Positions 2,125 through 4,365 are shown, numbered from the stretch's first letter. The stretch is 12,615 nt of DNA from a virus (IMGVR_UViG_2547132277_000006); one strand, 5' to 3'. The notes: generated by a model not told the origin, from the sequence alone. Numbers and translations: made by a program.

Positions 2125-2418
2125 TCACCCACGATTAACCAACAGCCAGACCAGCAGACACGCCACCACCGGCACAGCAAAATCCATCAGGCTTGCCACA
2201 TCCCATGCACGTGTATCAAAACCGCCCCACCACGGCATATTCATTCGCTTGCCATGCCCGAACATTTCGATCCAGCGATATTCTGCCTGGGTGTGTTCAC
2301 GCGCAATGAAGAACGTACAACCGGCTATCGCCCCGTAAGCCCAGTTCCCGGTAAAAAGACCAATCAGTAGCTGCGCAGCCACAGCACAAAGCGCATGAAG
2401 GAAAGGTGTTATATCCAT
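2125..2418 (-). CDS. Small inner-membrane protein, 97 aa, two predicted TM segments; function unknown
   Basis: ORF with strong SD (AAGGAGG, 5-nt spacer) embedded at the stop of the upstream gene. Hydrophobic stretches at about residues 6-39 and 75-95; ends LLVNRG. Confidence 0.6.
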   Translation of the reverse strand: MDITPFLHALCAVAAQLLIGLFTGNWAYGAIAGCTFFIAREHTQAEYRWIEMFGHGKRMNMPWWGGFDTRAWDVASLMDFAVPVVACLLVWLLVNRG

Positions 2419-2428
2419 TACTCCTCCT

Positions 2429-3133
2429 TTATCCGATATCGCTTCGGGAAACGGATAACAACTTTAATTCTGACTCAAGTTCATCAACTCTTTCAGTCAG
2501 CTTCTGGATATGGTGAATCAGTGGAACAACCAGACGTTCGTACATTACACCTTCGGCAACAAGGCCATTGCTGGAAATAGCTTCAGGAGCATCATCTTCG
2601 TTAGCTGGTCGCCAGTGTACAAACTGAGGGGCAATTTCTCCTACTTCCTCGGCAATCAATCCGTAGAATCCCCAGTCACGCCTGTCATTTTCGTATTGCG
2701 ACCTGTACCACACAGGGCGCATCCTGAAAATGAGATCGGCGTGCTCTGAATCTATCGTCTCTACTGAATGTTTATAGCGAATAGACGATGTTGACCGCAG
2801 TACAGACGAAATTGCAGGGTCAGGATTAAGATAAAGGTTTGCCGCCGCTGTAGTCGTGCCCAATCCCCACATATAAAACGCTTCACGGCCAGTCAACGGG
2901 TAAAAATCTCCACCATAACGACCGCTTTCCAGATCGTTCACTTCCAGTTTGTTTTTCAGCTTATTATCAACTTCAGTTTTTGTGTATCTGGTGCTGATAT
3001 CCTGCTTTGCACTGGTCATATCAGTCTGAAGCGTTGATACTTTTCCGTTAATTGAGGAAATATCTTCCTTAGTTTTACTGACATCTCCCTTTAGCGTGGT
3101 GATATCTCCTGGAATTACTGTCGATGTAGCCAT
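2429..3133 (-). CDS. Tail-fibre-like protein with C-terminal S74-type intramolecular chaperone/autoprotease domain and an unusually short N-terminal part
   Basis: 234 aa; SD GGGAG 5 nt upstream. N-terminal heptad-like repeats (TLKGDVSKTKEDISSINGKVSTLQTDMTSAKQDIS). C-terminal motifs S116-S-I-R-Y-K121, WYRSQY, GFYGLIAEEVGEIAPQFV and MYERLVVPLIHHIQKL...ELESEL resemble the endosialidase/T5 L-shaped-fibre chaperone domain (Ser-Lys dyad, GxIAQE-like motif, C-terminal helix). Confidence 0.7.
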   Translation of the reverse strand: MATSTVIPGDITTLKGDVSKTKEDISSINGKVSTLQTDMTSAKQDISTRYTKTEVDNKLKNKLEVNDLESGRYGGDFYPLTGREAFYMWGLGTTTAAANLYLNPDPAISSVLRSTSSIRYKHSVETIDSEHADLIFRMRPVWYRSQYENDRRDWGFYGLIAEEVGEIAPQFVHWRPANEDDAPEAISSNGLVAEGVMYERLVVPLIHHIQKLTERVDELESELKLLSVSRSDIG

Positions 3134-3142
3134 TTGTCTCCC

Positions 3143-3424
3143 TCACATCCAGCCACGAAGTTGATGCTCAACAACAACCGCGTATTTATCGAATATTGAC
3201 GATTTTTTTACATCATTAATGATGCGCACGTTTACAAAATATCCGTCTTCCTTAACACATACCGGTTCGCCATCTTCAGTCAGTTCTCCGGTTTCTTTGT
3301 ACACGTTACCTATCACGTCAATAAGAATATCATCCTGCATCGACTCGTCATCATAATAGCCAATACTCTCCATAAAGGCCGAAAAGTCGGCCCTGTCTGC
3401 AAATTTGAGTGTTAAATCTTTCAT
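3143..3424 (-). CDS. Small highly acidic protein, 93 aa; function unknown
   Basis: ORF whose ATG overlaps the stop of the upstream gene (TCAT at 3421-3424); SD GGGGGAGAG. About 20 Asp/Glu against 10 Lys/Arg. No family recognised. Confidence 0.55.
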   Translation of the reverse strand: MKDLTLKFADRADFSAFMESIGYYDDESMQDDILIDVIGNVYKETGELTEDGEPVCVKEDGYFVNVRIINDVKKSSIFDKYAVVVEHQLRGWM

Positions 3425-4365
3425 TTAATACTCTCCCCCATTTGCGCATCAGTTAATTCTTTATGCCAGATACGCAGATTACGGATATGACCAAAAAGAT
3501 GATACTCCCCATTAGTGCCCTGCCCTCCAATTCGCAATACTGCCCGTGGAACAATTGAAGTCCATGTTGTTTTTGCCGCAACAGATAATTCACCATTACA
3601 TACGGCCTGAACATCTCCATCAGCGCCACAACGGAAGCCTGAAATGATTTTCCTCTGGGTTGTTGCCACATATTTATTACACCCTCCCATAGAAATAAAA
3701 GGAGAACCGGCATCAGAGAAATTATTACCACGGAATCCATGCGTGAACAGACCATTTTCCTGATAATCTTTAACATTAAAGATTAATGGTGATTTGCTGG
3801 GAGGGATATCCCAGTTTTTATTAACTTCAACAAGAGCACTGAATGGTAATCGGTGAATATTGTTTCTTACAGGTATTGTCACCATGTCGCTGGAGCGAGT
3901 GCCAGGAGCCCCTTCAGTAATGATAAATGACGTCCTGTACGACCCAATCTCCGCCTGAGGCATCGCAATATCTAACGTAGAGCCATTGGGGATAATACTG
4001 ATTCCAGGCATCGCCAGGATTTCAAATCTTGAGCTGATTATCATTTCCGCATCTGCAAAAAGAGTGGCGGTAAACAACCACCATTCACCGACTCTTTCTG
4101 CCGTCACCGTCACATTATTTCCATGAACAACATTTCCCGTAACAGGATCCAGAACTGCATCTGAATGAAAAACAAACGCACCATTATCAGACATTTTTCC
4201 GAACCTTGCACGACACCGGGAATTATCACTTTTCGTCAGACACGATATCGTCGTATAAGAACCTGCCGGGCAGGTGTAAGCATCATTCGTGTTTACAGCA
4301 ATTGCCTGATATCCTTGTGCTGTCGGATTTTCATTAATAACAGTTATAGTCGCTGCCCATCGCAT
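3421..4365 (-). CDS. LamG/concanavalin-like jellyroll domain protein, probably the C-terminal remnant of a fibre/receptor-binding gene fused to the terminase remnant
   Basis: 314-aa ORF. The first 7 codons are read out of frame from terminase-A-derived sequence; the alternative internal start is Met58 at 4194. The C-terminus ...VLRIGGQGTNGEYHLFGHIRNLRIWHKELTDAQMGESIK fits the C-terminal signature of LamG-like domains. Confidence 0.6.
   Translation of the reverse strand: MRWAATITVINENPTAQGYQAIAVNTNDAYTCPAGSYTTISCLTKSDNSRCRARFGKMSDNGAFVFHSDAVLDPVTGNVVHGNNVTVTAERVGEWWLFTATLFADAEMIISSRFEILAMPGISIIPNGSTLDIAMPQAEIGSYRTSFIITEGAPGTRSSDMVTIPVRNNIHRLPFSALVEVNKNWDIPPSKSPLIFNVKDYQENGLFTHGFRGNNFSDAGSPFISMGGCNKYVATTQRKIISGFRCGADGDVQAVCNGELSVAAKTTWTSIVPRAVLRIGGQGTNGEYHLFGHIRNLRIWHKELTDAQMGESIK

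Follow-up and report, generated by a model that had tools for sequence, protein, structure and literature searches.

A four-gene region in a DLP12 prophage of Escherichia coli is probably the distal remnant of a side-tail-fibre locus

We analysed a 12,615-nucleotide stretch of viral DNA (IMGVR_UViG_2547132277_000006; hereafter the window), which is a copy of the defective lambdoid E. coli prophage DLP12 integrated at argU, and within it four minus-strand open reading frames (ORFs 1–4; Table 1), which an earlier note, made from the sequence alone, had described as a module of unknown function. We confirmed that the ORFs are tightly packed: ORF1 and ORF2 share a 4-bp ATGA overlap (3421–3424), spacers of 9 and 10 nt follow ORF2 and ORF3, respectively, and Shine-Dalgarno sites lie ahead of ORF2 (GGGGGAGAG), ORF3 (GGGAGA) and ORF4 (AAGGAGG). 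No ribosome-binding site was found upstream of ORF1, and no promoter-like or terminator-like sites were found flanking the module genes, including inside or just upstream of the module. The G+C content of ORF4 is 53.6%, versus 40–45% for ORFs 1–3. Instead of a module of unknown function, the four ORFs are very probably the 3′ end, and thereby the distal remnant, of the lambdoid side-tail-fibre (stf) locus of DLP12, with ORF1 cut by a deletion and ORFs 2–4 intact.

Table 1. Features of the window, in positions counted from its first nucleotide
Feature	Position	Strand	Remarks
ORF1 as called	4365–3421	minus	314 aa
ORF2	3424–3143	minus	93 aa
ORF3	3133–2429	minus	234 aa
ORF4	2418–2125	minus	97 aa
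Terminase large subunit (lambda A homologue), N-terminal 68 codons	4347–4549	minus	GTG start at 4549
Deletion junction	4346/4347		terminase-A codon 68 joined to stf codon 474; microhomology of at most 1–2 bp
stf 3′ fragment, last 308 codons and stop	3421–4346	minus	receptor-binding end
NF048003 match in ORF1	3892–4344		residues 8–158
Weak Laminin_G_3 match in ORF1	3442–3612		residues 252–308
Chaperone domain of ORF3	2432–2788		C-terminal, codons 116–234
tfa 3′ remnant, last 36 codons	1995–2105	minus	from translation; PGAP: partial tail fiber assembly protein
bor homologue	5964–6305
Prophage porin gene (nmpC/ompC-like)	8096–9178		360 aa
argU tRNA	12065–12138		sole Rfam match in the window
IS1, complete	1–698		beside appY
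IS1, partial	12322–12615

The terminase DNA next to ORF1 is 98% identical to K-12 nohD–aaaD as far as position 4347, where terminase homology stops; the matches in more than 3,700 E. coli genomes likewise end at this position. Its translation ends in ...AIMNAMGSDY, like lambda A, and past the junction the terminase reading frame continues to a stop at 4334. Identity to the longer stf of the F11 DLP12 begins at 4347 and runs downward. Residues 7–314 of ORF1 correspond to residues 474–781 of the 781-aa Stf of E. coli B DLP12, with 100% identity over 308 aa, and its first six codons (MRWAAT) stem from terminase DNA in a wrong reading frame, a spurious addition that takes the call to 4365; the earlier note had taken the 314-aa ORF for a gene and overlooked the junction within it. 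A PHROG search aligned ORF1 just to positions 474–793 of the 793-position phrog_1419 (tail protein). The E. coli B Stf begins with the prophage tail fibre N-terminal domain (PF08400; 224 bits), an anchor that a Pfam search did not find in ORF1 because the deletion removed it. Judging by these alignments, ORF1 is a fragment of an Stf, and neither a natural gene nor a functional Stf. The exact junction is present in 30 of the 5,426 complete E. coli genomes, and the module in its DLP12 context in about 144 genomes. Every head and tail gene of DLP12 is deleted in the window, so that no fibre could be mounted there. This loss had also escaped the earlier note.

What is left of Stf resembles domains of other fibres. 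ORF1 matches NCBIfam NF048003, a head-spike fibre of gene transfer agents (GTA), at 43.8 bits against a cut-off of 36, and the ORF1 family profile matches the solved head-spike fibre of the Rhodobacter capsulatus GTA (RcGTA; PDB 6tb9; E = 8.5e-10). In the latter, profile positions 11–155 (roughly ORF1 20–170) match residues 140–280 of Rcc01080 and include the motif QxExG..SS.I.T...TRA.D; Rcc01080, however, sits on the capsid rather than on a tail fibre and has a single domain in common with ORF1. Of the LamG signature claimed for the C-terminus, the Pfam score falls short, at 16.7 bits for Laminin_G_3 (PF13385) against a cut-off of 27.6, but the weak match recurs in 9 of 10 ORF1 relatives (best E = 1.3e-5), and for a homologue, Gp22 of phage IrisVonRoten, a galectin-like domain is described on the basis of a predicted structure. 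A C-terminal motif of the family, RIGGQ..G..HLFGHxRNxRIWHKxLTDxQ, is kept in all phage groups compared. Identity between the Stf proteins of F11 and phage PhiR49_1 is about 95% in the shaft and about 41% over the C-terminal 330 aa, of which the last ~25 residues are conserved again; the putative receptor-binding part is the most variable segment of Stf, with conserved sequence on both sides. The RcGTA head spike binds capsular polysaccharide. A domain like this spike, together with a LamG-like end, points to a glycan receptor for the Stf tip, and by analogy a surface glycan is the most likely ligand of the distal end of Stf.

In active lambdoid phages the same genes stand immediately behind J, lom and stf, as anticipated by one of two readings in the earlier note, that of a variable receptor-binding end of the late operon. 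In the plaque-forming phages PhiR49_1 and IdasGreatGrand the order is J–lom–stf–93–234–97 (numbers denote proteins by length in aa), with ORFs 2–4 of the same lengths and their proteins 84–95% identical; Tritos has J–stf–93–346–97, and phage 21 has J–stf–92–97, without the third gene. The window resembles the loci of these four phages and of E. coli B DLP12 in the order, lengths, overlaps and spacers of ORFs 2–4 and the tfa remnant, apart from the absence of the 234-aa gene from phage 21 and the 346-aa version and larger tip of Tritos. Unlike those loci, the stf of the window is without its first 473 codons (the tail-attachment domain and shaft), and J and the other virion genes are deleted: in the relatives J (and lom) precede stf in the terminal part of the late operon, whereas in the window stf adjoins the terminase fragment.

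Like lambda stf–tfa, which encodes the side tail fibres of Ur-lambda, the locus is located where the late operon ends, and its intact relatives have the same N-terminal Stf domain family. In contrast to lambda, with its own tip and a 194-aa Tfa, it has a LamG-like tip and the 93-aa protein. A remnant of a lambda-type tfa starts 19 bp past the 97-aa gene and shares 99% identity with the 3′ end of tfaX, and 85% with that of tfaD, in K-12. The active phage PhiR49_1 has the same remnant behind its 97-aa gene, and the scar is therefore older than the decay of the prophage; it was left by an older exchange, in which a lambda-type stf–tfa end was replaced by the present cassette.

We compared the deletions of DLP12 across lineages and found at least four different endpoints. 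E. coli B has the terminase small-subunit gene next to a J without its N-terminus, and its stf is complete (781 aa); in F11 a holin fragment abuts stf, of which 627 aa are left; in the window lineage terminase-A codon 68 abuts stf, with 308 aa left; and in K-12 an in-frame fusion joins terminase-A codon 103 to a lambda-type tfa, with no stf and with tfaD–ybcY–tfaX in its place. This bears out the supposition in the earlier note that the content of K-12 DLP12 differs here. The K-12 locus aaaD–tfaD–ybcY–tfaX is like the window in that the deletion begins inside terminase A and a tfa 3′ end is kept, but it has none of the four ORFs. In the K-12 tfaD coding sequence (5535–6098 of the K-12 stretch compared), terminase-A codons 61–103 continue in frame into a lambda-type Tfa, present from about codon 52 onward. 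A terminase breakpoint common to K-12 and the window, which was considered as BLAST homology ends at the same base, was rejected, because the K-12 terminase runs 35 codons further; by this comparison the K-12 deletion is evidently independent of that in the window. E. coli B shares with the window identical ORF2 and ORF4 proteins (the same RefSeq accessions).

The first three genes of the locus also occur in virulent phages, as a trio made up of a fibre with an ORF1-like tip, a 92–110-aa homologue of ORF2 whose gene overlaps or abuts the fibre stop, and a third protein. Carriers are the Nonagvirus ESCO3, the T5-like phages EC104 and IrisVonRoten, KarlJaspers (Drexlerviridae) and the Vequintavirus EmilHeitz, whose third gene is divergent. 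With the exception of EmilHeitz, the third protein opens with M(A/V)TxTVIPxDITxLK and has an S74 chaperone domain at its other end. In published models of IrisVonRoten, which include multimer models, the proximal fibre Gp22 has a protruding C-terminal galectin-like domain, and the distal fibre Gp24, which has an intramolecular chaperone, attaches to the proximal fibre (PMC11990801). ORF1 is 38% identical to the C-terminus of Gp22 (E = 1e-60). The window is thus like Gp22–Gp23–Gp24 in having a proximal fibre with a galectin/LamG tip, a small gene (92 aa in IrisVonRoten, 38% identical to ORF2) and an S74-ended distal fibre. It differs in that ORF3 is a stub of 234 aa next to the IrisVonRoten distal fibre, which has 574 aa and two receptor-binding domains, and in that the T5-like phages are without the 97-aa gene.

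ORF2 is an acidic protein, as the earlier note had said, with an isoelectric point of 4.31 and 20 Asp and Glu versus 10 Lys and Arg. It is translationally coupled to stf through the ATGA overlap and matches phrog_1361 end to end. Neither ORF2 nor its family profile had a match in Pfam, NCBIfam or the PDB, and a Tfa-family identity (lambda, P2 or Mu type) was rejected on this ground, although ORF2 may have a chaperone-like action. The AlphaFold2 model is poor (predicted local distance difference test score, pLDDT, 48), and in two large-database searches the matches listed were solely near-identical E. coli homologues. Among phage records, ORF2-like genes were found in 179 and ORF1-like tips in 205, with the same taxon breakdown; the 179 records come from five phage groups, and in them the ORF2 homologue lies directly behind an ORF1-like fibre gene. 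Across ten loci, the identity of ORF2 correlated with that of the first 30 aa encoded by the third gene (Spearman 0.87), versus 0.22 for the receptor-binding domain and 0.33 for the last 45 aa of Stf. This covariation hints at an adaptor role. Phage 21 has an ORF2 homologue without a third gene, and it is equally possible that ORF2 is a dedicated chaperone or a tip-bound partner of the LamG-type end.

ORF3 has, as noted before, an S74 domain (Peptidase_S74, PF13884, at residues 116–172; 27.6 bits against the Pfam cut-off of 22) and a coiled-coil-like N-terminal part, the latter seen as weak matches of the coiled-coil type that follow the conserved peptide MATSTVIPGDITTLK. Ser116 and Lys121, five residues on, align to the S-D-x-R-L-K cleavage motif of the homologues, and we take the pair, after the endosialidase literature, to be the putative catalytic dyad. 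As in endosialidase-type S74 chaperones (K1F endosialidase, T5 pb1), the domain is C-terminal and has the Ser and the Lys conserved; unlike in these proteins, the part upstream of it is just 116 aa, mostly coiled coil, and the Asp that follows the Ser is replaced by Ser. Cleavage after Ser116 would, on this alignment, leave a mature ORF3 of ~116 aa, mostly coiled coil. The chaperone domain matches LtfA of DT57C (8hqz_d; E = 2e-8). DT57C, like IrisVonRoten, has lateral tail fibres in two parts (LtfA/LtfB; PMC4728585, PMC10713586), but the branching known there involves a different protein pair. ORF3 is a stub next to the versions of 346–576 aa found elsewhere. It is 94–95% identical to the 234-aa genes of PhiR49_1 and IdasGreatGrand and about 61–64% identical to the 225-aa gene of KarlJaspers (4270–4947 of the stretch compared), and its conservation between lambdoid phages and KarlJaspers indicates a functional short form and not a decayed gene. 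Short stubs of the distal fibre also occur in unrelated phage groups.

ORF4 matches phrog_1443 over its full length. The earlier note had predicted a membrane protein with two spans; it is a helical membrane protein, and the AlphaFold2 model (pLDDT 91.7) has three helices (4–23, 26–53 and 74–96), so that two or three membrane crossings are possible. The topology signals conflict, with positive C-termini suggesting a C-in orientation and five Arg/Lys in a conserved loop. The block REHTQAEYRW (R40–W49; REHxQAEYRW in the family) is invariant across Escherichia, Aeromonas and Comamonas together with MPWWGGFD, the second block (M61-P-x-W-G-G-F-D68), which is also invariant in the alignments; in distant members E41 and W72 are invariant, and 90% of sequences or more retain H8, R40, Q44 and A45. 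The polar block H8...R40-E-H-x-Q-A-E-Y-R-W, invariant or nearly so, looks like a catalytic or a metal- or ligand-binding site, as far as conservation can tell. The family comprises 453 clusters at 90% identity and 429 at 50%, all of them stand-alone proteins of roughly 60–140 aa (mostly 90–130) annotated as 'hypothetical'; a profile search over 1.84 billion representatives returned small stand-alone proteins and no domain fusions, Pfam was empty for ten distant members, and sequence and profile searches of the PDB gave no match to ORF4.

Members of the ORF4 family are present in 1,899 of the 5,426 complete E. coli genomes (35%), with a median of 2 copies and a maximum of 7, and in phages of Escherichia, Aeromonas, Comamonas and Halomonas. 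In every context examined, the gene comes straight after one for a tail fibre, Tfa or J in a temperate element; the contexts were lambdoid phages, the Uetakevirus phiv142-3, the 108-kb circular phage PhiR41_1, Halomonas phiHAP-1, an Aeromonas P2-like prophage and a Comamonas prophage. It overlaps the preceding gene by 4 bp in phiHAP-1 (tfa) and in the Aeromonas prophage (fibre or Tfa gene). No ORF4 homologue was found in the virulent phages that bear the trio. ORF4 lacks the marks of a moron, that is, independently expressed cargo: no promoter or terminator of its own was found around 2125–2430, and it follows ORF3 by a 10-nt spacer. No likeness to described superinfection-exclusion or defence families was found, PADLOC returned nothing but a chance coiled-coil match, and the Hf4s seroconversion paper describes no role for ORF4-like genes, the conversion genes there being GtrABC. 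Our best guess, held with low confidence, is that ORF4 acts at the envelope and guards the infected or lysogenic cell against (re)infection, a role suggested by its gene position and its restriction to temperate phages. It is a more speculative thought, and on balance a doubtful one, that ORF4 belongs to a widespread but so far undescribed family of inner-membrane factors linked to the receptor-binding genes of phages, which could be a new envelope-modifying or entry-blocking kind working even from a dead prophage.

Taken together, these comparisons allow us to propose how the locus worked and decayed. In the intact form of the locus, which survives in E. coli B DLP12, PhiR49_1, IdasGreatGrand and Tritos, the late operon ends in the four genes. 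An Stf of ~780 aa would attach to the tail by its N-terminal domain and present, on a shaft rich in Ala, Ser and Thr repeats, the distal receptor-binding end. The 93-aa protein may serve assembly as a dedicated partner, or remain on the tip as an adaptor, and the N-terminal peptide of the 234-aa protein may dock onto the tip formed by Stf and the 93-aa protein; the S74 chaperone would drive trimer folding and then release itself by a cut after Ser116, and the result would be a branched or extended fibre. The 97-aa inner-membrane protein would be co-transcribed with the fibre genes in temperate phages only. In the lineage of the window, an illegitimate deletion from terminase-A codon 68 to stf codon 474 removed all head and tail genes and left ORF1 an anchorless fragment without its own ribosome-binding site. 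ORFs 2–4 are intact and could be translated but have no virion to act on, and on this reading the module is a passive relic, with any transcription presumably being read-through from the QuuD-dependent late promoter or operon via nohD. It could still be available for recombination into incoming lambdoid phages.

Several points weigh against parts of this proposal. Binding of the 93-aa or the 234-aa protein to the Stf tip is a prediction only, and the covariation that hints at an adaptor comes from just 10 linked loci and could mirror shared recombination blocks. Self-cleavage of ORF3 is only putative, as Ser117 replaces the Asp after the catalytic Ser; the mature product of ~116 aa has no obvious receptor-binding domain, the homologue in KarlJaspers is annotated as 'putative lateral tail fiber chaperone', and ORF3 could be a cap or an assembly factor instead of a fibre. 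As for ORF4, the absence of its own promoter makes a late-lytic role a better fit than exclusion expressed from the prophage.

The four ORFs might instead be contiguous decay fragments of one lambda-type stf–tfa pair, a possibility the earlier note had raised against itself. It holds true of ORF1, which is an stf fragment, and a genuine tfa fragment does lie beyond ORF4. For ORFs 2–4 it is refuted, as they are full-length, match PHROG families end to end, recur with the same lengths and 84–95% identity in plaque-forming phages, match no Tfa family and occupy separate frames, each with its own Shine-Dalgarno site; as an explanation of all four ORFs it is extremely improbable. The second reading in the earlier note, an accessory (moron) cargo unit unrelated to fibres that was inserted at the end of the late operon and benefits the lysogen, draws on the lambdoid lysogenic-conversion genes found near this position (lom, bor/iss, ompT and appY are in the locus), on the deviating G+C content of ORF4 and on its occurrence without the 234-aa gene. 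However, three of the four genes are homologous to fibres or strictly linked to them, also in virulent phages without lysogeny cargo, and the genes are translationally coupled and belong to the structural late operon of active phages. With no promoter or terminator of its own found for the module, at most ORF4 could qualify, and for the module as a whole we consider this reading highly improbable.

It is also unlikely that the host has adopted the module for an anti-phage or surface function, in which the stf fragment, the short fibre and/or the 97-aa protein would block adsorption or DNA entry, for example by occupying a receptor. A precedent is the chimeric Stf of the cryptic prophage e14 (StfE2), which is reported to block T2 adsorption (PMC12529663), and both the intactness and identity of ORFs 2–4 across independent DLP12 deletion variants and the very strong conservation of the 97-aa family, in temperate phages only, would suit such a function. 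The intactness may, however, merely reflect recent origin, as the DLP12 copies are 99.9–100% identical. ORF1, moreover, has no ribosome-binding site and owes its start codon to an accident of the deletion, fibre fragments in the cytoplasm have no export signal, no promoter-like site was found inside or just upstream of the module, and there were no matches to known defence families.

The rest of the window contains, from right to left, intD, rusA/quuD, a porin gene of the nmpC type, the lysis genes essD/rrrD/rzpD, bor/iss, nohD, the four-ORF region, appY and IS1, with IS1 at both ends. The porin gene is intact here, whereas an insertion element has split it into two fragments in K-12 and IS1 interrupts it in E. 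coli B. In identical genomes the annotation of the bor homologue is Iss, a serum-survival lipoprotein. Relative to K-12 and F11, the DLP12 of the window is without ybcV–ybcW (5669–5958) and without the whole early region from ybcK to ybcO (10336–10883), and rusA follows almost directly after intD. A repeat scan of 1900–4700 yielded a single weak inverted pair but nothing resembling att or invertase sites. Alternative-frame and plus-strand ORFs in 1969–4371 had no family matches and were discarded as genes.

The apparent novelty of four genes thus comes down to ordinary, datable prophage decay, and DLP12 offers a clean series of independent illegitimate deletions (E. coli B, F11, the window lineage and K-12), in which the late operon is eroded starting at its terminase/lysis side and the distal fibre genes beside appY/ompT survive. 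Of the module, the 97-aa and 93-aa families are the sole parts worth following up, and both are of interest for phage engineering: the 97-aa gene is among the commonest unannotated prophage genes of E. coli, and LamG-tipped fibres of at least five phage groups come with the 93-aa protein. Infecting lambdoid phages are known to acquire remnants of this sort. Recombination of lambda with DLP12 is frequent (PMC3945230), and, as the flanks are shared with other lambdoid phages, the realistic role of the locus is that of a reservoir of fibre modules; the relic could donate its receptor-binding cassette to an infecting lambdoid phage and so change the host range of that phage.

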